DNA of 61,105 nt, counting the filler, from Globobulimina sp. (taxonomy: Eukaryota), in assembly GCA_003354225.1 (NCBI GenBank). It is 11 parts of 11 records of this genome, joined end to end, with 100 filler letters (N's around TTAATTAATTAA, not from the genome) between each part and the next. Parts side by side here need not be neighbours in the genome. Positions count along the whole stretch, not along the records: positions 16,729 to 22,194 come from PIVH01000554.1; 10 more parts are not named here. One strand, written 5' to 3'. Shown piece by piece: positions 5,479 to 61,105 of the stretch (position 1 is its first letter; every line of letters starts with the position of its first letter). The notes below the pieces were generated by a model that saw only the letters and a program-made list of their open reading frames with translations, was not told the DNA's origin and searched no databases. The translations under genes were made by a program, and so were the position numbers.

Positions 5479-5578
5479 NNNNNNNNNNNNNNNNNNNNNN
5501 NNNNNNNNNNNNNNNNNNNNNNTTAATTAATTAANNNNNNNNNNNNNNNNNNNNNNNNNNNNNNNNNNNNNNNNNNNN
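5479..5578. other. Artificial contig linker. Identical linkers at 11055-11154, 16629-16728, 22195-22294, 27759-27858, 33322-33421, 38882-38981, 44440-44539, 49997-50096, 55552-55651
   Basis: Each is exactly 100 nt (N44-TTAATTAATTAA-N44) with a six-frame stop cassette; contig lengths decrease monotonically. Confidence 0.99.
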
Positions 5579-11054: not shown

Positions 11055-11154
11055 NNNNNNNNNNNNNNNNNNNNNNNNNNNNNNNNNNNNNNNNNNNNTT
11101 AATTAATTAANNNNNNNNNNNNNNNNNNNNNNNNNNNNNNNNNNNNNNNNNNNN

Positions 11155-16628: not shown

Positions 16629-16728
16629 NNNNNNNNNNNNNNNNNNNNNNNNNNNNNNNNNNNNNNNNNNNNTTAATTAATTAANNNNNNNNNNNNNNNN
16701 NNNNNNNNNNNNNNNNNNNNNNNNNNNN

Positions 16729-17305
16729 GTGTGCACCATCCACTAAAACAATAAACGAAATATTAAAATCTGGACAAAATATTAAAAAAGTTTATATTGA
16801 TCCATTTGCGTATAATTTAATATCTCCGTCACCACAGCATTTAAAAAATATTATTCCTCGGATTTTTGAATGTAAATCACTCGAATATTTTGGAATTGTG
16901 GTAAATGATGAAAATTATATGTCAATATTGGATGGGATTGAAGTTGCTTTATTTCAAAACAAACAAATAAAAAGAAAACAAATTAAAATTAGAATGAATG
17001 GGGCGATAAAATTAAAAATTGATTTGAAAGGTATAATTTTTAATATTTCTCGAATTGTGTTATTGTTGGAATCATCAGAAATAAATGATTTTATGTTTAT
17101 TTGTGATATGAATAGAATGAATAAAAAAGATGCAAAGGAATTGGATGCAAATGATATTGTAAATGATTTAAATAAGATTTCAAGAAACATCAAAACAGCT
17201 GTAAATGGATTTTGTTTTGTAATTACAAATAGAAATTGTAACATATGCGGATGGAATGGACGTTGGTTATTTCCACTGTCGGCTATATGGAAATTTCGAA
17301 CTTGA
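16729..17305 (+). CDS. 3' fragment of a hypothetical protein (LRR/F-box-family-like C-terminus)
   Basis: Frame open from the contig start (CAPSTKTINEILKSGQNIKKVYI...) to TGA at 17305. Confidence 0.55.
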
Positions 17306-17405
17306 TGAGATAAGTTTTATTATTGAATTATTGATATGCCCAAAATAATATTAAATTGTTTAACACATTTATTTTTGACAAGCAAAAAAAACTCTAAAAG
17401 CAAGC

Positions 17406-20400
17406 ATGACAACGCAAAAGAGCAGAAACAAGCAAAGTACACGCGATGCCTTATCAACCTTTGTGCCGCAAACAATGAAATGGATCCTTCAGCAAGAAAC
17501 CAACTTAACAGTGCCATATAGCAAACAGTTCCCGTCCGTCGCCTTATTTGCAGACATTTCAGGCTTCACAAACTTAACCGAAAAATTGTCCGCCTTACCC
17601 GGCACATTGGGAGTGGAAACCTTAGCGGATGAAATCAATAATTATCTGACTCAGATCATCAAACAAATAGTGGGCAGTGGCGGCGACATCTTCAAGTTTG
17701 CGGGCGATGCCTTATTATGTGTCTGGCCGCCAAACCAACAGGAAATGAACGACATGATCATGGCCTGGAAGAATCTGAGCAAAACTGTGTTGCGCGTCAT
17801 TCGCTGCGCTTTGGATATCCAGAAATCATTGGGCGAAATGAGCAAATGTGGCGTGCCCGAATTGATACTCCGCGTAAAGTTAGGCATTGGCGTAGGGAAC
17901 GTCGACGTGTTGGTGGTTGGCGGCGTAATGGGTCGATTTGAAAACTTGCCCGCTGGACAGGCTTTTTTTGAGGCATTTAACTGCGAAAATGACTGCAAAC
18001 CGCAACAAGTGATAATATCCAACAAATGCTACCAAATGTGTAAGGCGCAAATTGGTGACTGCGAAGCCGTGGGGCCACTCGGAAACTATTTGGTGAAATC
18101 CATCAAATATCGAATAGGGAAACGCAGGAATATGAATGCGGACTCCTTGAATTTGTCCACTATGTCTGACCAAAACGACAGTTTATTTAAGAAGTTCTCG
18201 CGGTACATCCCGTCCGCGGTGGTGCCGCATCTACGAATGCCCGAACAAGCGTGGGTCGGCGAGCTGAGACAGGTCACCATCATGTTTTTGTCGCTGCCCT
18301 TCAACTCGACGGACATAAAGAACATCGGCAGCAACAAAGGCGAGAACATATTGAAGGAGATCCATGACAGCATCCGGCAATTACAGACCATCATATATCG
18401 GTATCAGGGCTCGTTGAATAAGTTTCTGGTCGACGACAAAGGCTCCACTGTCATGGCGGTGTTCGGATTGCCTCCGGTCGCTCATCGGAATGACCCCGAA
18501 CGCGCAGTGATGGCTGCTTTGGATTTGAGGAAGAAGTTCAAGGCGCGTTACACGAAGAAACTGTTGTCTTTGCTGGGCGGCGCCACATTGGACGTGAATA
18601 AGACAAAGGAGCAATATGACCGCGACAAAGACAAAAACAAAAAGAAAAAAGACAAAATGAAGCACAAAGCCAAAGAAAAGACAGTGAATGGAAAGAAAAA
18701 GAACATCATCGCCATTGGCATAACATCGGGCATTGTGTACCTGGGACTTGTTGGCGGTGCAGGCAGTCGGAGGGAATATTCTGTGTTGGGCGATAAGGTG
18801 AATTTGGCCGCGAGACTGATGGGTCTCAGCAAGAAAGAGCCGCATATTTATGGCGAGATTGCCGTGGATGAGAGCATAAAATCAAAGGTGATGACTGGCG
18901 AAATTCGGCATGAATTGGACTGGAAGTTCATTAAAACCACCAAAGTGAAGGGGAAGAAGCAAAATATCAATGTCTACAGTCCGGTGCCGAAGATATTTAT
19001 CCATCACGTGGCCATTCCGCCGATTGCATGGCTGACGGACGCGTCCGATAAGTCGTACATTACCGAATGCAGCCGCGTCATTGAGAGGTTACACAAATAT
19101 GAGACAGGCAAAGTGGTGTTTGTCGAAGGCGAGGCCGGTTTGGGCAAAGCAGCTTTGATCAGCAGAGTGATGCACCAAACTAAGAATCGGATCTGGTGGC
19201 TCTGGGGAAAGGGGTCGTGGCTGCATGAAACCAAGGAAGCCTTGAAATTCCCGGTCTGGAAACAAATCTTATTGTCCTTTGAGATAAAATATCCGTTCTG
19301 GCTCTCCAAAAACCGCAAATCCTTTGAACATTACATCGAGAAACGGCGGCCAGATTTGCATCAATGGCTATTCTTATTGTCGTATTTCAATTTGTTATCC
19401 TTTGTAAGTCCGACTGAGTATGATCCAAACATTCACATTGAAAAAGACAGAAAAGATTTGATATTCGCGAGACTGCGCAATTCGGCGTGGCAGCGGAATG
19501 ACAAATTAGTGCAAGAGTTGAAAGACAAGATCCAGCTCAGAATGAGTGTGGACGCCAAACGGTTCGAGCAGCAATTAACGGAAATCAAAGATGACGAAAC
19601 TCGCAAACTAACAAAGCGAAAAAAGGAAGAAGAATGGCGGCTATCTGCAGAGTTGAAGGTGAATAAAAAAATAGGAAACTTCATCTACGACATTGTGTTT
19701 TGTTTATTGGAGTGGGCCGGCGGTAAGTTGGCCGGCACGAAGCCGATTGCCATTGTCATTGACGGATTGCAGTGGCTGCGGACATGGGACTGGTCGCTGA
19801 CTCGCCGCTTGTGTCTGATGCTGGAAAATAACATCTTGAAACATGTCACTTTGTTCATCTCCTCGACGCCGATGGACATTCGGCGGTATACACCGCATTA
19901 CATTCGCAAATATTACACGGCGCAGTATCAGGAGATGCGCGATGGCGAGTCGTCCATAGTAATATTGCCGGCGGCGTGGGGCATCCAGAAAACCAAAAAG
20001 TACATCAAGTCCTATTTCAAGCACGAGCACAACATCAATGTTCGCGATGTGTCGCCCAAATTGGTGGAGACGGTGCACAGTCAAAGTGGCGGCCGACCCG
20101 GTTTTTGCAAGGAATTCTTGGATATTTTGTTCAAATTACCGTCTTTGCTGACTTTTGGGCGACATGCGGTACAAAGGGGAGAAAAAGTTGTCTTTCAGTT
20201 TGGAATTCGAGCAACATTTATCTTCGCGGACGCAATATTCGAGCATCCCGATCCCAGCGAGCGTCCAAGCCATCACGGCGCGCCATTTGGATGTCCTGAA
20301 CCCGGAGTCCATGCTCTGTCTCAAGACTGCGGCCACGATCTGCATCAGCAAAGGAACGCGCTGCCTCTCCTTTCTCAAGTCGACGTTGCGAGGCTCGCAT

Positions 20401-21723
20401 CCCATCAAACAATTTGTGGAACCCATCTCTGTGTTGGACAATACGTTGGAAAAGCTGTGCAAAATGAAGTTTATCGCAAAGCTGCCGTCGAAGCAGGACA
20501 TTTCCAACGCGATCGACGTGAATGAGAATGGGAATGGGAATGGGAATGCGGCGCAGTCGGAGCTGCAGCCAAGGAAACGGACTCTGCCCTGCCAACTATA
20601 TAAACAGTCGTCGATGTTGAACCATACACAACACGGACATCTGGAGAACCATTACCACTCTGAGTTGGTGCACCATCACTCCTCAGTTTCGTACCAGAAA
20701 CACGATGAGAATGTCATCAAAGACCGGTATGGCTCGGCTGCCAACAATGTGGTGGCGAGGAACAAGATCCATATCAATAACAACAACAACTCGTTGGCCG
20801 ATATGTCGCGTGGAACCATTCACCATTTGCGGAATTTCAGCGGTGTCTCGGATCGCAGCGACCAGACTTTCTCTGACCGCAATGGCTCTGACCAGGAAAT
20901 GCAGAAAAATATGAAGATGACGGACGACGAAAATAAGCATAAGAGAGATGTGGAGGACATGCCGCTGACTTCGCAGTTAGTGGTGGAGCCGTTGCATGCG
21001 GTGGCTTGGAAGAAGGGCATTTTGTGGAAGTCCAAAGGCGGGCTTTTGTCGACTGGCTCTGACCGCGTCTTTGTGTTCAAAAATAAGACTCTGTACTGGT
21101 TCCGAGACAGCATCGCCGACAAATATCCGCTGGGCAGCATCAAATTTGGCGAATCCATTTTGCGGCTTCAGCTCAACGAGAAAAAGAAAGAAACTCTCAT
21201 CAAAGTCTCCAGAAAGAAATACATTTTGCGCGCCAAGAGCTTGCCTGCAATGCAAGAATGGTTCAAATTGTTTCAGAATGCCATGAATTCGACGGATAAC
21301 TCGATGAATAATTCGATGCAGAACATGGAGAACATGGTAATCAACGAAGAAAAGTCTGTGGATCCCGGCCCCGATGCGGACAATGAATATTTGAGTAACA
21401 CTCACGGCGAATGCTACGAATTCACGCATGGTTTCCTAAGGGACGCCATCTACGAACAAATGTTGTCGACGCAGAGGATCCGAATACACAAAACTGCGCA
21501 GGAATACTTACGCAAAGTCCTCAAAGCCATCTCGTATTTGCCCAAATATTTGAACAAGGACTTGGACACAAAAGATTATACTTCGCTGCTACAAAGACAC
21601 CAATCCATTGCCCAAAACTACCAGAAACAGCAGAAAAATATTGGTGAGATGGTGGCTGAAGATGGCAAAAAAAAGCACAAGAAAAAGAAACACAAATTCC
21701 CGGGTTTTATCGGTTTAGATTAA
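17406..21723 (+). CDS. Soluble adenylyl cyclase (ADCY10-type): C1, C2, STAND P-loop, winged helix with inserted PH domain; +1 frame break near 20155
   Basis: C1 ALFADISGFT and DIFKFAGDA; C2 LNKFLVDDKG and RREYSVLGDKVNLAARLM; Walker A GEAGLGKA. The second frame continues with IPASVQAITARHLDVLNP, PH KKGILWKSKGG...RVFVFKNKTLYWF...LRAKSLPAMQEWF, then YEFTHGFLRDAIYEQM. Confidence 0.9.
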
Positions 21724-21966
21724 ATATTAATAAATCTTAATTGTAGCTTGTTGCAATCAGTGTGTATATGTTTATTTGTGTGCTGGTGTTCAATTTATAG
21801 TTTTAAATTGCAATCTTTTTATGTTGAACTTAATGTATATCAAACCTTAATGTTGTGTCTGGCTGGCAGTCTTGGCTGGCGCGGCTGGTATACCAATCAA
21901 TTAATATATCGAAATTTTAAGGAAGGACGTTGAGTATTAATTTGTGTAACACTAAAATCTCTAATC

Positions 21967-22194
21967 ATGGCCACGTTACTTGCTAAAGCAGTAATATTTA
22001 AATCACTCATAAAACAATTATCAAAACAAGAATTTCTGACATCAATGGGTAAAATATATGATATGGATCAGTTCGACTTACTATCAACAGCATTGTTTAA
22101 TTATTTTATTCATCCGCCATCAGTTACAAATCCGAATCCTCATCATTTGGCTAAGATTAATTCCATTTTGTCTCAAATTATGCAATCCAGAGAA
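21967..22194 (+). CDS. 5' fragment of a hypothetical gene
   Basis: ATG-initiated helical ORF (MATLLAKAVIFKSLIKQL...IMQSRE) open to the contig end. Confidence 0.5.
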
Positions 22195-22294
22195 NNNNNN
22201 NNNNNNNNNNNNNNNNNNNNNNNNNNNNNNNNNNNNNNTTAATTAATTAANNNNNNNNNNNNNNNNNNNNNNNNNNNNNNNNNNNNNNNNNNNN

Positions 22295-23722: not shown

Positions 23723-26334
23723 TTAATTTTTTGTATGTTTAATAATTTCGTTTTCTTCTTTCTCTTCTTTTACATCATAACCACTTTGCAATTTTATTTC
23801 AGATTGAATCAATTCGTTACATCCGTTAATTAAATCTTTGACGCCATCCCATTCCGTAATGCCTAGTCTCCGCTTATTTGATACATCGAAAACACCGCCT
23901 TTTGATTCAGAATTCTCGCCATCAACACCACGAATTTGTAAATTATTTCTCTTTGCAATTGCATCAAATAACTGCTTCTTTCGTGAAGTGAGTGGTATTC
24001 TGATATGAACCGAGGCTCTTTCGCCACAACCAATATTTGTTGGGCACGCTGTTAAATATCCCAATTGTTTATGATATGCAAATTGCAATTTATTATTGAT
24101 GGCAGCCACTGCTTTCTCTAAGCGACCAAACACTGATTTAATATTTGCGCCTTGTTCCATGGATATTATTCGTAGCTGATCCTCTTCGTTCAGCCACACT
24201 AAAAATGTTTTGCTATTATTAAAGAAAATGCCTCTCCCATTGGGCCAGAAGCGATTAATGCCCGCCGACTCTAAGAATTCATCTCCTTTCTTAAATAAAA
24301 AGTGATCCGCAACCAATTGCTTTCGTGTTGCCTCATTCATATTACCTAACGGATAATATTTGCCTAATTTGTGGAATCAGAGTGTTAATTTATCAAATGC
24401 AGTATACACAAATCGATACCTTTTAAATCATCATCTTTGAATTCTTCTAAAATGCCTTTAATTTTCTCCTCCAACTCCATTGTTTGCGTTTCGTTCATAC
24501 CGCCTCTCAATGGATAGCCCTCCACATTCCTGGCAACACGAACTCGCGTCGAAATTATAAATGTACCCTCGGGATCTAAATCAGCTGGGAACGCATCGTC
24601 AAATTTAAAATTTTGCTTTGGATGTTTGAAGCCTTGCAATGAGGGCAACTTATGATAATCACTGATGATCGGATTGAATAAATCAGCAAACACAGCATAT
24701 GCATCAGCATCGCTTGCATAGACACCAATCTTTGCTGAGCGCATATTGTCCATTCCTGACATTACACACGATCTCAAATCGCATCCTTGTTTTGTTTGTT
24801 TATCTTTTAATGTTTCAAAGGTTTGCCGCGTCAAATACTTTTTCAACAACGAGGTAGAATTTGATTGTTCCAATTTGGTAAATAAACTTTCGAGCGACTC
24901 TATTTTGTGCAAATTATATCCTTTTATTGACAGTTTGTCGCTGGATTCTTTTAATTGAACCGGCCATCTTTTTGTATCAATTAAATACGGCCCGGCCACA
25001 TCAGCCAAGCTGCCATTATATTTCTGCTCTGCTTTTAATCCAAAGATCTGAACTCGATCACCAATGTTAAACAAAGCAATATCGTTATTTACTAAATCTA
25101 TTTCCATTTTATTGAGCGCATTGACGCCGTCACACATAAATTGCACCAACGTACGCTCAGAGTAACCCATTCTAAATTTATTGCTTATGTCCACAATGCA
25201 ATTTTCTTCAATTTCTGAATGTTCGCCATACAAACCACGGATTTGCATTTTATATTTGATGCCGATATCATTCAATTTGTCTAAACCTTTCTGGCATAAA
25301 CGAGGCAGTGAGATATGAACAGATGAACGCAAACCTGTTCCTAAATTGGTTGGGCAACACGTTACATTTCCATATTGCGCATCGAATAAGAAACCATTAT
25401 GTTTGCCATTTGTGACCAGTTTTATTCCTTTTTCGATTGCTGACACTGCTTTTTTTAAGCGATTGAATACAGCTTTGACATTATTTGATTTTTGCATCGA
25501 AATAAGCCGCAAATGGTCGCCTTCATTTAGCCAAACAATAAATGTTTTCGCCTCATTCAAATAAATGCCTCTTCCTCTTGGAAACCATAAATGATATCCG
25601 CTGTCTGTCTGCATTGCGTCGTCATTCCCTGAAAATAAAAGATGATCATCGACCAATTTCTGACGAATCTCTTCCTCCATTCCATGCAATGCGTAATATT
25701 CACCTTTTAGCTCATTGTCATATTGCAACGAATCAAATACTTTTTTCATAATTTCCTCAATTTCCAATTTAATATCAACACTTCTTTGGGACGGAGCTAA
25801 TGGGAAACCGTCGATATTTCTCGCCACCCGAATTCGTGTTGATTTTATATTTTTAAAATGAGCAATATCGCCTTCCTCAATCTCCAACCATTTCTCATCG
25901 CAATCCGCAGAAAATGATGATTTTATGCCTGAGTGATATGTCTTTGTTTGATGGTAATCTCGAATCACTGCACCAAAAATGTCATTAAATAATGAATATG
26001 ACTCAATATCACCGGCATGAATACCAACCAATGATTGCGGGTTTTTCACGCCTGTATTGATCGCATTTTTAAGCATAAAACCATTTTTTGTTTGTCCATC
26101 TTTTAATTTATCGAATAAATCTTTTGTTAAATATTTGGCCATTAAACTGTTGCATAATTTCAATTCCTTTGCTGGATATTCATTTTTTGCTAATGTTTCA
26201 TTTAAAATGATTTCCGTTTCTTCTTTCTCTTCTTTTACATCATAACCACTTTGTTCTCTTGCCGCAACATCTACGTAAGTGTGGTTTTGTGAATCAATCA
26301 CTGATTGATTTAACAAATGCTTTACGTGATGCAT
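23723..26334 (-). CDS. Two-domain phosphagen (arginine kinase-like) kinase with SH3-like linker; intron 24364-24419
   Basis: Domain 1: SLMAKYLT, STRIRVARN, WLNEGDHLRLISMQ, CPTNLGT. Domain 2: SLLKKYLT, STRVRVARN, WLNEEDQLRIISM, CPTNIG, DVSNKRRLG. The 56-nt intron restores LKGKYYPL. Confidence 0.93.
23752..23788 (-). repeat. Exact 37-bp direct repeat, second copy at 26217-26253
   Basis: TTTCTTCTTTCTCTTCTTTTACATCATAACCACTTTG; encodes QSGYDVKEEKEE at both ends of the kinase. Confidence 0.95.
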
Positions 26335-52830: not shown

Positions 52831-54448
52831 TTATAATTGTCTTCTTCTTCTCTGTGTATAACAAGATCCCGGTCCCGGTGGAGCCGCCCTTTCTTGTGCA
52901 TTATTCGACGGCGATGCCGCAACACCTCTCTCATTCAATAAACACCGAAAATATTCCATCCTTGGTTTGGCGGCACTCGTCGAGTTCACCCTCCGTTCAC
53001 TCCATAATCTCTCCCCAATGGCCGCCGCAGTCGGCCATATCGTTTGTTGTATATCACTGACATCCACAGTCTCGCCCCACATACAGCCCTCACCGCCAAT
53101 CACCAATGCCTGTTGTGCTGCATTTGAGATATATTGCAACGGCTCCACCACATATCTTTGCTGCCAAGTCGTTCTCAATGAATCTAAGTACCAATTTGGA
53201 TCCGGACTAAATATACCACGAAAACCACCAGCCACAACATTGGGTAATATGGAATTGCCCGAATGCCACACTTGAATCACCACCTTTTGTGGATCCAATG
53301 TCTTTCCAAAATAAGTAAACACCTCATCCCAATCAATCACAGTCTTACCATTACTGTTTGCAATGTCAATCACGCGCTCATCAAAATATTCTAACGCTTG
53401 CAAGGCGGTGTAATGATTTGCATTCATCCAATCCACAATGGACTGGGTCTTGCTCCAACAGTTTGTATTCACTTCATCGCCACCTAAATGAATATGACTG
53501 TCGCTGAATAATTTCGCAGCTTCAGCGATGAGACCGGTCAATAAGTCCCACGTCTCATTGACGGCGGGGTTAAGTGGCGAGTTACAGGATGGAGAGGGAC
53601 ATATATTTGGATATCCGACACACCACGATTGGGCATGACCGGGCATGTCAAATTCGGGGATCACGCGGATGCCTAATTGCTTGGCGTAGTTTACGATGTC
53701 AGTCACGTCGTTTTGGATGAAGCGTTCGTGTGTTGAGTAGGCGCCGTCCCATAACTTGGGATATGCCAAGGATTCATAAGGGAATGACTGTGTATCTGTG
53801 ACATGCTGTATACAGTATACACAGTGCAGTATATATCAAATATGAAACTGAAATATAATAACATACCCAATGTAATACATTGAATTTTGAATACGACATA
53901 GAATCTAATACATTGAAAATGGACTGTTTGGATTGGAAATGTCTGGAAGTATCAATTAATATGCCACGGTGCGAGAATCGTGGCGAATCAGTAATGGCTG
54001 AGACGTAGGTTTGGTAATAATTGGCAGACACACTAAATATAACCAATTGACTGAATGTTTCCAGTCCGCGAAGTGCTCCCCAGATTGTATTGGAATTTAA
54101 TGAGGCGACGCCAGAGGATGTGAGTGATAATACATAGCTTTCATCCATACCGTAAGCTAATGTATTTTCTGAGGCATCTTTAATGGTTAATGATAATCCT
54201 GTAATGGTCGCGAATGAATTATATGCTCTCCCTTCTGGCGTATGAGGGAATGTTAATTTTGTATAGCGTGCAAATGCATTTGTTATAATCTGTGATTGAG
54301 AATTTTGAGTAAATGCAAATTTTGACGCGTCTACATTGAGATTTAATGAATTTGATACAGTATACTGCTTCGGTAGTGGCCATATAAATGGTTGAGATTG
54401 GCCATATGTGGTTGATAATGAACCAAGCAACAATACTATGGACAACAT
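52831..54448 (-). CDS. Beta-N-acetylhexosaminidase (GH20); intron 53806-53866
   Basis: Signal peptide from ATG 54448; IWPLP, DESY, GALRGLETFSQL, RGILIDTSRHF, NVLHW/HVTDTQSFP, PEFDMPGH, catalytic HLGGDEV, GGEGCMWGE. Confidence 0.95.
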
Positions 54449-54618
54449 GGCGGACTTTGAGAGTGGAATGAAAGCAGAAAACTTTGTTTGAAAGCAGAAA
54501 AACATTGATTTTTTTTGTTTGAATGGCCTCAATTAAAGCTAAATACAAATGGAATAACAATCATGCAAATGGAAGATTGGAAGTTGAATTATTTTTTCAT
54601 AGTTAAAGATGGATTTAT

Positions 54619-55551: not shown

Positions 55552-55651
55552 NNNNNNNNNNNNNNNNNNNNNNNNNNNNNNNNNNNNNNNNNNNNTTAAT
55601 TAATTAANNNNNNNNNNNNNNNNNNNNNNNNNNNNNNNNNNNNNNNNNNNN

Positions 55652-55882: not shown

Positions 55883-58800
55883 TTAACTGTAAGTTCTTGT
55901 ACAAAATATATTGCCACATTTGCGGCAATGATGTCTCCTTTCTAATACACCAAATTGTGAGTTGCATTTCGGACAATTACTAACATCGATGTCCTTTAAC
56001 CAATGATCTTCTGATCTATGCAACGACCATTGGCGAATCTCGCCATTGGATGACGCGGTCCATAAATGTTGATCTGTATAATGCGATGTATGTATCTTTG
56101 TTACCGAGGAGGAATGGATTTTTCTGTTATGTTTTTGTTTGAATCGCAGCGTTGTGTCAGTACGCAATTGTTTATTTGTGGTCGCTTGTTTGATAATGTT
56201 TTCATCAGTGTCAGCCGCGTCCATTTTCTTTTCGTCTTTTTCCAGCTGTTCTTTGTGGATATCATGCGATTCAATTTCATCCACCGATTTGTACTTCATT
56301 CTTCGGACTTGATACGGCGGCAATTTCGGCTTAAAATATTTCTCCAATGACTTCATTTGGTGCTTGAACTCATGCTCATTATTTTTCTCTTTCTTTGCTT
56401 TGGCTAGTTTTGCATTGTTATATATATGTTTATTATCCATGATTTCATTTGGACCGTTTGGAATGGTTAAGGTCCAAAACCGGAGGGATCCATCTCGATG
56501 TCCACTAATAACACAACAGGAATCTTCAGGTTGCCAATCAGATAAACAGGACACAGCTAAGGAAGTGATGGTATTTGTAATTAAGGATTGTCCGCAACAG
56601 ATCCAAGCTAACAATTCACCATTCAATGTCCAGGCAGATAATGTGACGCCGGCACAGGCAATCACGTCACCATTGTTACTATTAATCGCAACGCAAGTAA
56701 TGCCAGAGGTGTGTCCTTCCAATCTGTGGACATATTGTAACGAATTCAAATCCCATATAATTAGGGAATGGTCTTTTGAGCCAGACACAATGATTCTATA
56801 TTCTTTGCTGTACGCTAAGCAGGTTATTTCATCAAAATGGCCATACAATCTATTTTTAAGGGACACAGTGGCGTGGGGCGGCCGTCTCTTATCTTTGCGT
56901 GGTTCGGTTTTAATTTTCCATACATTCACCACTGAGGTTGTATCGCCAGTAAATACATTCTCCCCATCATCCGAGACCAACACGCATGTAATTTGTCCAT
57001 TGTCGGTGGCCACTAATTCTTCAAACACAGTCACTAACTCACTTTTATAAAATACGCGCAACGAACGATCACTAAATCCCCATTTTAAGGTATATTTATA
57101 TTCAGGACCAATGACGATTTCATTCTCGCCACGATAAATACATTTCAAATCTGGTGTGGTTTCTAAGAACTGGATGCCCCGATCACTCCCAGATATAATC
57201 AATATACTTTGCAATAACGATGGTTGCGAATAAACCGTAATAAAAGATTTTAGAACTTGCCTCTGTTTGTGCGGTTTGGTAAATAATTGATGCGGCGTCT
57301 GACCAAAATTGTCAATCATCGATATAATGGATGTTTTCTTGACTTGGTCCGTAATGGTATCCAAATCGATGGCATCTTCATAGGTCCACGGATAGAATAC
57401 ATTTTGTGCAGTCACTGCATCGGGGCCACGTTGTTTGTATCCAAATATTAAGTCGACCCATTCATGCAAATGTAAGGATACATATTCGGATTCTAAGGCA
57501 TTCCGATGCATTCGCACAAATCTTTCAGGATCGCCATAGGCCCATTTCGGTAATAAGACATCATCGATGGCCACCCCCTTTTCCGTGGTACCATAATCAA
57601 ATCTGTTTGTATTGGTTAAGAAGTTACTCAAATAAAAGAATTCAGGGATTAATTCTTTTACATCCTGCATCCCACCGGTCTCAGACGCTAATTTGTAGGA
57701 ATAGGATATGCTCGAAAATAATCTATCCGCATGATCGAATTTACCATCTTGCAATTCTAAGGCAATGCGTGTAAACGGCTCGAGGCGAATTAGAAAATAA
57801 CATATGATGCCACCACAGGAATAATGTGTGCCATAATGGAATTTGCTAACTTCGCCAGATGGATCTTCATAGGTTTCATATCTTTCTTTAAATTCCGATG
57901 CGCGAAGCTCGGTTTGTGCACCCATCGGTTTGCTCAAATCCCGATATATTTTCTCATCGCGTAAATCTAAGAGGGACGAATCATAATCATTTAAGACCCA
58001 CGGAAACACGGGATATTGCGAGATATCATTAAACGTACGGCCAGCCAAAGTATTTAAAAACATTAAATAGGCAAAATTACTCATTTCGCCTTTGACCCAT
58101 TTATCTGTTACTTTTTTCGTGTCATATTCGGTTCTCTCCAGGCCAACAATTCGTGAACCTAAGCCTTTTACGGCCCGTTGTAATCTATTTTCGTCAGTCA
58201 CTGTGGATATATGTTTTAATGTATCATTGGATTTTGATTCTTCATTTTTTAGTTTTGTTTTACTTTTTATTTGATCTTGCGTTGTTTTTACTTCTTCGGT
58301 CAATTTCTTGTGAAAATCATTACGATCGGATTGATTTGTAAAGACCAATAAAAAATTGCTGCCATTAAGCAAATAAAATTCCATCGCTATTTTCTGTAAT
58401 TGATAGCGACGACGATGAAATTCACGCAAATCTGTAAATTTCCATTGCTTCGGTTCTTTATGGGTGATTTCTTCCAGTTTGCTATCACTATTATTGTCAT
58501 TTTCGTTTTCGTTTTTGATGACTGGCGTTTTTGGGCGATACGGATTGTTGGGATCATAATAGGCGGATTGTTTAACTTTATCCACTGCAATTACGGGACC
58601 AATCACATCCGTTTTAAATACAAATCGTGTGGTAAACAAAGCTTTTTTGGTTGCATCATAGGGTATTTCCTCCAATTTACCTGTTCTGGCATCCACTTTA
58701 ATATTAAAGAAGAAATACATGGCATAGCGACACAATAATATCACACCACCGTGCTCGTTTAAGCCAGTAATGGTGGAACAATTATAGGTTTTATACGGGT

Positions 58801-61105
58801 CATATTCATCGCCAGGAGCTAATACTCGCGACATACGATCATGTAAACCCAATTCAACACCGGTTGATATGGATAATCTTGCCATCCGATCCGACACCGT
58901 ACTAAATGGTACATCCACATTTAACATGGATGCCTGATGCGAAATTATATGCATATCTGACAACATTAACATTTTATTTTCTGGTACACTGGAGATATTA
59001 TGCGGCTGTTTACTACTTTTATTGGATTGGCCAGGCCCTGATGCCGGTGTTATAGTAATACTATTTCTTTTCGATTCCGATTCAGATCCATCCATACTTT
59101 GTTGCAAATGGATTGAATCGTCAATCATATTCATAGGCGTTATAGGTTCGGCATTGTTTAATATTTTTTGTCTTCGTTTTTCTGCTTTATACATAGCCTC
59201 AATAGAGGTCGCATTATCCGTTTGCACAGTCAATCTCTGCAAATCAACAAATCTCGAATTCTCAATGACATGTTTACTGTGAACATCATTGCCATTGCTG
59301 TTATTAATTAAGGTGGAGAATTTCTCGTGCAATTTAGAGTCTGTTTTGGTTAGTTTGGGTATGGCTGCTGGGATGGCGTCAGCCTCATTGGCTGAATCAT
59401 TTTCAGTCTCATTTTCTTTCTCATCCGATGTCATATCATCATCATCTTCTTCATCTGCGGCATCGTACACACTGTCATCCTCTTCTTCCTCATCCTCATT
59501 TATTTTCTTATCATTGGTCATACTATTTTCAACCTCGTATGATTCGCCAGTTTCTGACAGCTCGGGTGTAGGTTCCCGCTCTGTCAGACTTTCTAAGACA
59601 GATTGTTGTGTGATGGAGCTTTCATTTTGTGATGGCTCAGGCTCACGCAATAAAGGTAACGTATTGCCGTTCATAACATTCCTAAGATTCCTATTGTTAC
59701 CGATAGACATTGAATGTGCGCGATCATGGTCGCTATTCGAACGGAGCTTGTTCGGTGCGACTGCGCCATCATTTATTTTATCTGCAATGGCCGGGGTTAA
59801 CTTTTTCGCGATCGTCTGCGTTGATGCTTTCCTCATTGGTTCTGGAATCATGGGGCTATCCTCATCCGACAACATCACTAATTTTACTTTGTCCGCATCT
59901 TCTTTCGTTTCTGCTGACGATTCATCCAACGGTGCCGCAGTAATAGCTAATTGTTGCTGGTGTGTGACATGAGAATAATATGTTGCAAACTTATTGGGAT
60001 TATCATAATATGAATTATATTCAAGATAATATTGTTGAAAGGCCGGATGTTGGGCCAATAAATCAAAAAACTTTGTTTTAGAGACTTTGTACATGCGATT
60101 AAAATCTCGATGCCGCATTAATTTTTTACGTTTCCTATGCGGCCCTTCCACAAAGTTAAGATACCAGGCATCATCCCATGGCGTACGGAAGGTGGCCAAC
60201 CATAATGGTGATTGTACCCGTAATTTGAAATTCAAATGAATCCAGGCCGAGGTGGCCCGTAAGTCCCTATAATATATGCGATGTCGGCGTGAATTCATGC
60301 GAGCATCTTCAATGGATTTAAGTTCAAAAATAGCATTATTAAAACTGGCTTGTTGCTGGATAACCGCAGAGGGTAAGGCGTCTGCATATTGTTCCGCTCT
60401 TTGATTGGATTCTTTATTTTTCTTTAAATCTTCCTCCCATCGCTGTCGCAGTAATGCTTTCTCAGTTTGCCAACAATCGTCCCATGGTTTTTTGGTCACA
60501 TCTTTCAGTGTTTGAGTGGTGAAAGTTAAGCCACCTTCCTTTTGCAGCCATTTTAAAAAGGCATTCCTATCTTGATCAATTAATCGCAATTTCTCATATA
60601 ACGAATGATTTTTATGCAAATATTTCATGAGAAAATTGGATTGGTAAAATAAAACACATTGCCACACTTTCAAACAATGCGTACCAATTCGTTGGTGTTG
60701 TGATGAATATTTACTACTTTGCGTGTGAGTGTGTCCTTTGCTGTCTCTTCTTTTTGATTTGCCTATTTTCGAAACTTCAGATAATAGCGGTAATAATACG
60801 TGCAGTAAGCCTAGAAAAAAGAAATCCGGCTCATTGCAATCTGTATAAAATAGAATCTCCTGAAATTCAGACACTAATGGCAGTATTTTTTCTAATTGCT
60901 TGTTTTTCAAATTGACATGTTCTAATTCTAAGGCGCCGTGAAGGAAAAAAGTGACTACAGATTGAACTGCTTTGCGTGAGACGGAATATAATGTTTCCAT
61001 ATCTTCTGCAGTGGGCATACTTGATTTCTTCTCTTTGGATAATCTATCTTCAATTTGTAATCTTTTGTCGAACGCCTCTTTGCAGGCTTTTAATAAAAAT
61101 TTATT
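55883..61105 (-). CDS. BEACH-domain protein, WDFY3/ALFY-like (PH-BEACH-WD40-FYVE); 5' end outside the window, FYVE truncated
   Basis: EGPHRKRKKL, RRYQLQKIAMEF, SNFAYLMFLNTLAGRTFNDISQYPVFPWVL, HYGTHYS, DVKELIPEFFY, FGQTPHQLF, WD repeats, HWLKD..C..C..F..RRHHCRKCG; frame open to 61105. Confidence 0.92.
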   Translation of the reverse strand, partial: NKFLLKACKEAFDKRLQIEDRLSKEKKSSMPTAEDMETLYSVSRKAVQSVVTFFLHGALELEHVNLKNKQLEKILPLVSEFQEILFYTDCNEPDFFFLGLLHVLLPLLSEVSKIGKSKRRDSKGHTHTQSSKYSSQHQRIGTHCLKVWQCVLFYQSNFLMKYLHKNHSLYEKLRLIDQDRNAFLKWLQKEGGLTFTTQTLKDVTKKPWDDCWQTEKALLRQRWEEDLKKNKESNQRAEQYADALPSAVIQQQASFNNAIFELKSIEDARMNSRRHRIYYRDLRATSAWIHLNFKLRVQSPLWLATFRTPWDDAWYLNFVEGPHRKRKKLMRHRDFNRMYKVSKTKFFDLLAQHPAFQQYYLEYNSYYDNPNKFATYYSHVTHQQQLAITAAPLDESSAETKEDADKVKLVMLSDEDSPMIPEPMRKASTQTIAKKLTPAIADKINDGAVAPNKLRSNSDHDRAHSMSIGNNRNLRNVMNGNTLPLLREPEPSQNESSITQQSVLESLTEREPTPELSETGESYEVENSMTNDKKINEDEEEEDDSVYDAADEEDDDDMTSDEKENETENDSANEADAIPAAIPKLTKTDSKLHEKFSTLINNSNGNDVHSKHVIENSRFVDLQRLTVQTDNATSIEAMYKAEKRRQKILNNAEPITPMNMIDDSIHLQQSMDGSESESKRNSITITPASGPGQSNKSSKQPHNISSVPENKMLMLSDMHIISHQASMLNVDVPFSTVSDRMARLSISTGVELGLHDRMSRVLAPGDEYDPYKTYNCSTITGLNEHGGVILLCRYAMYFFFNIKVDARTGKLEEIPYDATKKALFTTRFVFKTDVIGPVIAVDKVKQSAYYDPNNPYRPKTPVIKNENENDNNSDSKLEEITHKEPKQWKFTDLREFHRRRYQLQKIAMEFYLLNGSNFLLVFTNQSDRNDFHKKLTEEVKTTQDQIKSKTKLKNEESKSNDTLKHISTVTDENRLQRAVKGLGSRIVGLERTEYDTKKVTDKWVKGEMSNFAYLMFLNTLAGRTFNDISQYPVFPWVLNDYDSSLLDLRDEKIYRDLSKPMGAQTELRASEFKERYETYEDPSGEVSKFHYGTHYSCGGIICYFLIRLEPFTRIALELQDGKFDHADRLFSSISYSYKLASETGGMQDVKELIPEFFYLSNFLTNTNRFDYGTTEKGVAIDDVLLPKWAYGDPERFVRMHRNALESEYVSLHLHEWVDLIFGYKQRGPDAVTAQNVFYPWTYEDAIDLDTITDQVKKTSIISMIDNFGQTPHQLFTKPHKQRQVLKSFITVYSQPSLLQSILIISGSDRGIQFLETTPDLKCIYRGENEIVIGPEYKYTLKWGFSDRSLRVFYKSELVTVFEELVATDNGQITCVLVSDDGENVFTGDTTSVVNVWKIKTEPRKDKRRPPHATVSLKNRLYGHFDEITCLAYSKEYRIIVSGSKDHSLIIWDLNSLQYVHRLEGHTSGITCVAINSNNGDVIACAGVTLSAWTLNGELLAWICCGQSLITNTITSLAVSCLSDWQPEDSCCVISGHRDGSLRFWTLTIPNGPNEIMDNKHIYNNAKLAKAKKEKNNEHEFKHQMKSLEKYFKPKLPPYQVRRMKYKSVDEIESHDIHKEQLEKDEKKMDAADTDENIIKQATTNKQLRTDTTLRFKQKHNRKIHSSSVTKIHTSHYTDQHLWTASSNGEIRQWSLHRSEDHWLKDIDVSNCPKCNSQFGVLERRHHCRKCGNIFCTRTYS

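Follow-up and report, generated by a model that had tools for sequence, protein, structure and literature searches.

A soluble-type adenylyl cyclase gene of Globobulimina with a PH domain predicted in the wing of its winged-helix region

The cyclase locus and its reading frame

The window analysed here, a stretch of 61,105 nucleotides from the Globobulimina sp. assembly GCA_003354225.1, carries on its plus strand a gene for a soluble-type adenylyl cyclase. Its entire coding region spans 17406..21723, in the part of the window taken from PIVH01000554.1, and comprises 1439 codons with the stop after one surplus base at 20153-20159 is discounted. The frame-corrected product of 1438 aa is predicted to contain, from its N-terminus, two cyclase catalytic domains, a P-loop NTPase domain of the STAND type, a winged-helix domain with a PH domain inserted in it, and a polybasic tail. 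Mechanical calling of open reading frames (ORFs) divided the same region into two overlapping plus-strand ORFs, 17406-20525 (1039 aa, ORF1) and 20155-21723 (522 aa, ORF2), one frame apart. The C-terminal translation, by which the residues of the winged helix, the PH domain and the tail are numbered below, starts at 20161 and is 520 aa long.

The closest homologues of the product were P0001 from Nonionella stella (1423 aa, 73% identical), P0002 (1553 aa), and P0003 (1480 aa), and P0001 (EP01083_P082342) is probably the orthologue by its sequence. In all three, '...CKEFLD...DMRYKGEKKLSFS' runs uninterrupted, while the window has its two halves in frame 0 and frame +1, respectively, and deletion of a single base within the TTTTGGG run at 20153-20159 of the plus strand restored the frame. 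Contigs of four public runs (X1, X5, X6, and X7, from four studies; X6 and X7 may be RNA) were compared with the window over 17000-22000. In each of them the contig bridging the break was short by one base, always at that contig's full depth; the missing base fell at 20157 in X1, X5, and X6, and in X7 at 20153. None of the four runs had a joint inside the gene, the contigs being unbroken over the parts that they covered; X7 gave no cover at 20674-20840, which lies in a low-complexity linker, and no conclusion was drawn from this gap. Base differences between the runs and the window were sampled (34 inside the gene, with 219 further differences beyond the sample). With the frames corrected, 28 of the 34 were synonymous, among them 6 of 6 that lie past the break, against only 5 and 4 of the 34 in the two shifted frames.

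The two ORFs are a single intronless gene. The first-pass annotation had already taken them as parts of one protein, and the homologues and all four runs upheld that view, with the correction that what separates the ORFs is one extra homopolymer base and no intron. An intron at the break was ruled out, because homologues align on both sides of it with one base to remove and no run shows a joint in the gene.

Two other readings of the break were weighed. The frameshift may be real, in which case the window would hold a very recent pseudogene, or a truncated cyclase-NTPase without winged helix, PH domain, and tail, while related strains are intact. The extra base is indeed present in the window, and no compared run is identical to it (X1 shows 6-10 other letters per 1.2-1.5 kb), so that none is demonstrable as its source and the surplus base could be real in this strain, a point that counts against correcting the frame. 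However, the 520 codons downstream are still fully open, the listed differences there are all synonymous, the base is absent from four of four runs, and it sits in a homopolymer run, a typical site of assembly error; we therefore consider a real frameshift quite improbable. It is hardly credible that two independent genes are present, one for a cyclase-NTPase and one for a PH protein that starts at 20155 or later, although mechanical calling does yield two ORFs and 'PH domain-containing' proteins of 589-755 aa, which are fragmentary, exist in the Reticulomyxa annotation. Homologues of full length (1423-1553 aa) cover both parts, single contigs bridge the junction in all four runs, ORF2 is without a conserved start (the TTG at 20155 comes after a stop in that frame), and the winged-helix domain would be severed from its NTPase. 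The simpler reading is that the two-ORF split is most likely a homopolymer assembly error, and annotations of the locus should correct it.

Catalytic core and NTPase module

Pfam reported Guanylate_cyc in two stretches of ORF1 (E 2.4e-16). The best solved match of the core was human ADCY10 (4clf, 4oya; HMMER E 1.4e-40), to which the catalytic domains C1 and C2 both aligned. C1 (aa 37-222) occupies 17514..18071, on the plus strand as are all features of the gene, and aligned with ADCY10 residues 34-207; C2 (aa 288-519) occupies 18267..18962 and is the best Pfam Guanylate_cyc stretch. The metal-binding Asp pair of C1 is found in FADISGFT (17547-17570) and KFAGD (17694-17708), corresponding to D47 and D99 of the human enzyme. 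In C2, the Lys of SLNKF (18411-18425) corresponds to K334, and the Ser, Asn, and Arg of REYSVLGDKVNLAARLM (18771-18821) correspond to T405, N412, and R416. Thus the catalytic set described earlier, with two Asp in C1 and Lys, Asn, and Arg in C2, was found intact in the alignment to ADCY10, and as in ADCY10 the two domains stand in tandem in one chain. Judged by this alignment, the core is that of a soluble ADCY10-type tandem C1-C2 class III cyclase, with all catalytic residues in place. C2 also contains a Lys-rich loop of about 58 aa (aa 375-432; 18528..18701), lying in the gap between the ADCY10-aligned blocks 257-374 and 433-472, which has no counterpart in human soluble adenylyl cyclase (sAC) and is shorter in P0003.

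Passages of two papers on sACs (PMC12250328, PMC12867704) describe Asp47 and Asp99 as holding the metals, Lys334 and Thr405 as reading the adenine, and Lys95 and Arg176 as binding bicarbonate, with Arg176 being the switch that releases Asp99; the same passages indicate that animal sACs are not all under bicarbonate control. Since the purine-selecting pair in the window is Lys/Ser, comparable to Lys334/Thr405 of human sAC, the product is predicted to make cAMP. The bicarbonate-site Lys is kept (K95 is the Lys of KFAGD), but Arg176 is replaced by the Phe of FFEAF (17964-17978), just as had been read by eye, and P0001-P0003 have Phe at this position as well. Because the switch residue is Phe, bicarbonate switching of the human type is probably absent. 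This pair of residues marks the bicarbonate regulation of the mammalian enzyme; belonging to the fold does not depend on it.

Downstream of the catalytic core comes a P-loop NTPase-type region, which is another likeness to ADCY10. In the window it appears to be a STAND-type domain, AAA_16 (aa 560-808; 19083..19829), matched by Pfam in ORF1 with E 1.7e-7 slightly under the curated threshold, and AAA_16 was also found in close and distant relatives with E 1e-5 to 1e-22. Its motifs look degenerate, as the first-pass annotation had suggested: Walker A, GEAGLGKA (19128-19151), does not fit GxxxxGK[ST] in that it ends with Ala, and the second acid of Walker B, IAIVIDGLQW (19746-19775), is Gly. Among 70 relatives with a Walker A recognisable by regular expression, the last residue was Ser or Thr in 66 and Ala in only 4, and these four, P0001-P0004, are the immediate clade of the window. 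Walker B reads DG in the window and HG in P0003, DE in the next foraminiferal branch, and ED in bacterial relatives. By these motifs, the NTPase is degenerate, having lost the Ser/Thr of Walker A and the second acid of Walker B. The losses are a stable feature of the clade rather than damage, since they are conserved among sequences 59-73% identical, and the NTPase (NOD) module probably no longer hydrolyses nucleotide.

In comparison with human ADCY10, therefore, the window protein shares the tandem catalytic domains with the conserved Asp pair, Lys334, Asn412, Arg416, and Lys95, and differs in having Phe for Arg176, Ser for Thr405, the 58-aa Lys-rich loop in C2, and degenerate Walker motifs. 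It further differs in the PH domain predicted within its winged helix and in lacking a long C-terminal repeat region; the C-terminus of ADCY10 is like tetratricopeptide repeats (TPR).

Winged helix, inserted PH domain, and their distribution

The C-terminal part begins with the N-terminal portion of the predicted winged-helix domain, its helices and first wing strand (aa 26-108; 20236..20484), in which LCKMKFI lies at 20455-20475. A low-complexity linker follows (aa 111-265; 20491..20955), predicted to be disordered with a predicted local distance difference test score (pLDDT) of 23-33 and weakly conserved both in alignment A1 and against Reticulomyxa. A short GNGNGN-coding repeat in the linker, at 20520-20550, is common to other loci, and contigs of all four runs show loose ends there that continue into unrelated sequence. 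The PH domain (aa 280-378; 20998..21294) comes next, and then the second wing strand with the helix after it (aa 414-460; 21400..21540; strand 418-421 and helix 424-459 in the model), where YEFTHGFLRDAIY lies at 21415-21453. The protein ends 89 aa after this wing motif, with two long predicted helices, a polybasic stretch, and a hydrophobic end. The last helix (466-507 in the model), the polybasic stretch, and the hydrophobic end together occupy 21556..21720 and are kept in P0001-P0003; KKKHKKKKHK lies at 21667-21696 and FPGFIGLD at 21697-21720, with similar ends in P0001-P0003. This end stands in the place of the TPR sensor arm of relatives. Pfam matched no TPR or other repeat family in ORF2 at E<=0.1, in agreement with the polybasic tail and missing TPR region reported earlier, and all motifs and features that had been located in the first pass were present at, or a few bases from, the positions assigned to them.

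The assignment of the PH domain drew on Pfam, on the model, and on structure matches. PF00169 was detected in ORF2 with E 1e-5 and 26.4 bits, above the cut-off of 25.1, and the model shows seven strands (283-357) and a C-terminal helix (361-376) at pLDDT of about 80. The closest structure was the PH domain of ARAP3 (7yir), by Foldseek with E 2.2e-6 and TM 0.82, and by VIA-align with Z 14.4 and rmsd 2.1 over 98 residues; both programs grouped it with classical PH domains, which also included those of DAPP1, TAPP1, PLEKHA7, and CERT. A clear PH domain between the winged-helix motif and the wing, as first noted, was thus recovered by profile and by structure. The phosphoinositide signature of PH domains is K-Xn-(K/R)-X-R in beta1-beta2. 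Aligned to cytohesin-2 by HMMER, the window sequence keeps Lys in beta1 and Arg in beta2, and has Ser for the basic residue two positions before the Arg. Across 34 distinct segments of the family, Lys stood at the beta1 position in 28 of 28 cases and Arg at the beta2 position in 29 of 29. This pattern fits a conserved pocket for an anionic ligand that falls short of the full high-affinity signature. Recruitment to lipid through the PH domain is plausible.

In order to place the insertion, three profile hidden Markov models (HMMs) were built from alignment A1, namely segA for the helices before the insert, segPH for the PH domain, and segB for the wing motif and its helix, and were run over 172 proteins, of which 52 had both flanking blocks. 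segPH was found between the flanks in 17 of the 52, with a flank gap of 234-527 aa. In 26 others there was no segPH and the gap was short, 13-79 aa, this group taking in bacterial cyclase-AAA_16-TPR proteins and cyclase-phosphodiesterase fusions; the remaining 9 had an intermediate gap of 135-267 aa in which segPH was not detected. The window has a gap of about 310 aa, filled by the disordered linker and then the PH domain. The earlier observation that about 310 aa separate LCKMKFI from the wing YEFTHGFLRDAIY, normally a short distance apart, is therefore well matched by the block spacing in the 26 relatives lacking the PH domain. BLASTP also aligned the wing that follows the PH domain in the window with the wing that precedes it in P0032 (Paramecium sonneborni) and the similar P0054.

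The AlphaFold model of the C-terminal 520 aa shows helices at 33-44, 48-64, and 89-101, a strand at 105-108, and disorder at 111-265; after the PH domain, a second disordered stretch is followed by the strand at 418-421 and two long helices. The VIA-align list for this model was filled by PH domains, and the winged-helix fold was judged through P0162, a relative without the PH domain, which block HMMs link to the two flanks of the window with E 5e-12 and 3e-10. The P0162 model (alignment A2; pLDDT 75, predicted TM-score (pTM) 0.71) has the order helix-helix-helix-strand, disordered loop (243-259), strand. Its helical and winged-helix domains superpose on CED-4 (Z 11.9), Apaf-1 (Z 11.3), and MalT (Z 10.6, rmsd 2.5 over 117 residues), followed by the STAND-TPR protein 6mfv (Z 9.3) and then many ORC and Cdc6 winged helices at about Z 7. 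Because the modelled flanking blocks of P0162 match the winged-helix regions of CED-4, Apaf-1, and MalT, the insertion site is, on the models, the wing hairpin loop of a STAND winged-helix domain. No wing-loop domain insertion was reported for the matched CED-4, Apaf-1, and MalT structures in this comparison; the NTPases of these three proteins are active switches. Pfam did not report WHD_MalT or any other winged-helix family in ORF2 (E<=0.1) or in 12 relatives (E<=0.05). A Protein Atlas search with the C-terminal part gave best scores of 0.79-0.84, among them a MalT winged-helix cluster at 0.79, which serve as leads only.

Members of the family were found in Nonionella stella (P0001 and P0170), Bolivina argentea (P0018), Elphidium margaritaceum (P0293, in the P0003 cluster), and Reticulomyxa filosa (P0007, P0127, P0128, and P0130, annotated as hypothetical proteins). 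The foraminiferal homologues P0001, P0293, RFI_15964, RFI_26751, RFI_31115, and RFI_23762 are collinear with the window through winged-helix helices, linker, PH domain, wing, helices, and basic tail, and for RFI_15964 (P0007) the whole C-terminal module was matched with E 5e-41. The Reticulomyxa/Bolivina branch differs in having GKS and DE Walker motifs, as opposed to GKA and DG/HG in P0001-P0004; all of these are uncharacterised hypothetical proteins. Out of 1.84 billion, an exhaustive search with the C-terminal part gave 51 representatives at E<=0.001, many being fragments, and a word-index search returned P0001-P0003 only. By these searches, the C-terminal module is narrowly distributed.

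Outside this clade, similar combinations of domains occur with the PH domain in another place or absent. Bacterial cyclase-AAA_16-TPR proteins (such as P0100, P0107, and P0115) resemble the window protein in their two cyclase domains, STAND NTPase, winged-helix block, and wing block, the last being of the common type F-x-H-x-x-x-[QR]-[ED]-x-x-Y, but they have intact GK[ST] and hhhhED motifs, blocks 13-44 aa apart, long TPR tails, and no PH domain. Proteins of ciliates and oomycetes (Paramecium P0032, P0044, and P0048; Saprolegnia P0061; Aphanomyces P0068), annotated merely as 'adenylate cyclase' or 'PH domain protein', share the soluble-cyclase core, STAND NTPase, PH domain, and little or no TPR, but in them the PH domain lies about 60-200 aa past the wing block, appended rather than inserted. 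Among PH-bearing relatives from outside the foraminiferal clade, both features were located in 13, and in all 13 the PH domain began after the wing block. Lipid-binding additions recur among the cyclase relatives, with FYVE in oomycetes and C2 in P0103.

The first-pass annotation had proposed a candidate for an undescribed signalling module, and this held in part. The domain set itself is common, a cyclase with a PH domain being present in 47 of the 120 best matches to the N-terminal ORF, including many Paramecium proteins and oomycete proteins with FYVE in addition, and members with the insertion are already public as Reticulomyxa hypothetical proteins. What stood is the position of the PH domain: by the sequences compared, its location inside the winged helix is the distinctive feature and is confined to the foraminiferal clade. 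No description of a soluble-type cyclase with a PH domain or a winged-helix insertion was found in the full-text literature, subscription journals being outside the scope of that search. PMC7546249 and PMC12223298 were rejected as prior descriptions, the passages concerned dealing with other proteins.

The same wing loop holds other material in paralogues. P0012, P0014, P0154, and P0171 have an insert of 433-438 aa in it, with a PH-like segment, and in P0012 and P0154 a Ras-binding domain of the PI3K type (PI3K_rbd) stands beside the PH in the same insert, which supports the idea of the wing loop as an input site and would suit a module that takes in membrane signals. Seven other proteins (P0016, P0071, P0072, P0144, P0147, P0156, and P0158) have PDEase_I after the winged helix, that is, they are single-chain cyclase-STAND-phosphodiesterase fusions, and P0071 is named as cercozoan.

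Proposed working of the enzyme and other features of the window

Taken as a whole, the locus is probably best explained as one gene for an sAC-type cyclase with a degenerate STAND module and a PH domain in the wing of its winged helix, held at a membrane or at a partner. The NTPase module would serve as a static or ligand-gated scaffold without a hydrolysis cycle, and the PH domain and the polybasic tail, which flank the wing strand, would jointly keep the enzyme at anionic membranes or at a partner bound to the membrane. Since the winged helix is the moving element in STAND activation, engagement of the PH domain may pass through it to the cyclase. We infer the membrane holding and the transmission from PH domain to cyclase with the least confidence of all steps. 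Recruitment by phosphoinositides (PIPs), which would couple them to local cAMP, was proposed in the first-pass annotation and may hold here.

Several observations weigh against this explanation. The AlphaFold check proposed earlier gave a satisfactory PH fold, but the model of the C-terminal part is otherwise poor (mean pLDDT 51, pTM 0.29), with the winged-helix helices reaching only pLDDT 50-71. The strand at 105-108 is presumed to pair with the strand at 418-421, and the winged-helix assignment comes from the model of the relative P0162, not of the window's protein. AAA_16 scored 32.3 bits in ORF1, 0.3 bits short of the Pfam cut-off of 32.6. The middle basic position of the phosphoinositide signature is Ser in the window (Ser-Asp-Arg) and Gln, Lys, Ser, or Thr across the family, and most PH domains do not bind phosphoinositides specifically.

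These last points bear on whether the PH domain instead docks a protein partner, such as a small GTPase, a phosphoprotein, or another part of the enzyme, with lipids having no direct part. The lack of the middle basic residue is in line with docking, the PI3K_rbd beside the PH in the insert of relatives suggests input from a GTPase, and the structural neighbours include protein-binding PH domains, such as that of GRK2 with G-beta-gamma and that of ARHGAP21 with Arf1. Against it, the pocket residues beta1 Lys and beta2 Arg do not vary within the family, the best structural matches (ARAP3, DAPP1, and TAPP1) are PH domains that bind inositol phosphates, and about 120 aa past the PH domain there is a conserved polybasic tail. 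We regard protein docking without lipids as unlikely, though with appreciable weight.

A bolder extension of the membrane- or partner-held cyclase is that in foraminifera the STAND switch of a soluble adenylyl cyclase has been turned into a membrane-gated device independent of hydrolysis, in which the PH domain grafted into the wing replaces the repeat arm and binding of a PIP or a GTPase directly unlocks cAMP synthesis. The sensor would be the PH domain in the wing, joined by the Ras-binding domain in paralogues, within the element that rotates on activation, and cAMP would be made at that same membrane, for example in reticulopodia or at the site of calcification. We put this forward as a doubtful conjecture.

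In no organism is the long regulatory region of soluble adenylyl cyclases well understood. The lineage has a natural variant with decayed NTPase motifs, no repeat arm, and a recognisable signalling domain within the mobile winged helix; if the PH domain controls activity, this variant would reveal how the STAND part of a cyclase talks to the catalytic core and would provide a direct link from lipid to cAMP, or from GTPase to cAMP, in Rhizaria. A physiological angle may come from calcification, as PMC10284544 reports the expression of soluble adenylate cyclase and protein kinase A together with Ca2+ export in foraminiferal calcification, leaving the cyclase gene unspecified. On the comparisons made, the protein is a variant of a known cyclase family that often bears lipid-binding domains, and not a new class of system.

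The base composition of the cyclase gene differs from that of its surroundings. Its GC content at third codon positions (GC3) is 0.62-0.65, at an overall GC of 0.47, compared with a GC3 of 0.18-0.50 in the window's 28 other long ORFs. A foreign origin, suggested by the high GC3, was not supported, as the arginine kinase next to it is likewise closest to foraminiferal proteins at similar identity, with best matches in Nonionella and Bolivina at 78-79%; this marks the window as foraminiferal and the gene as belonging in it. This multi-domain arginine (phosphagen) kinase lies at 23723-26334 on the minus strand as ORFs of 649 and 205 aa, 44 bases apart; its best match is a Nonionella stella protein of 1120 aa, and the split may be a short intron or a frame error.

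Two further genes were recognised on the minus strand. A GH20 beta-hexosaminidase at 52831-54532 is divided between two ORFs that adjoin each other in different frames and leave profile positions 38-51 uncovered, which may reflect a one-base assembly error or a tiny intron. Paired runs of 44 N, 12 bases apart, recur every 5555-5576 bases along the window (5479-5578, 11055-11154, 16629-16728, 22195-22294, and so on to 55552-55651); they cut several ORFs, and their regular spacing looks like an artefact of masking or scaffolding rather than biology. A BEACH-WD40-FYVE protein of at least 1711 aa is encoded at 55883-61105 (Beach E 1.4e-119) and continues past the end of the window.

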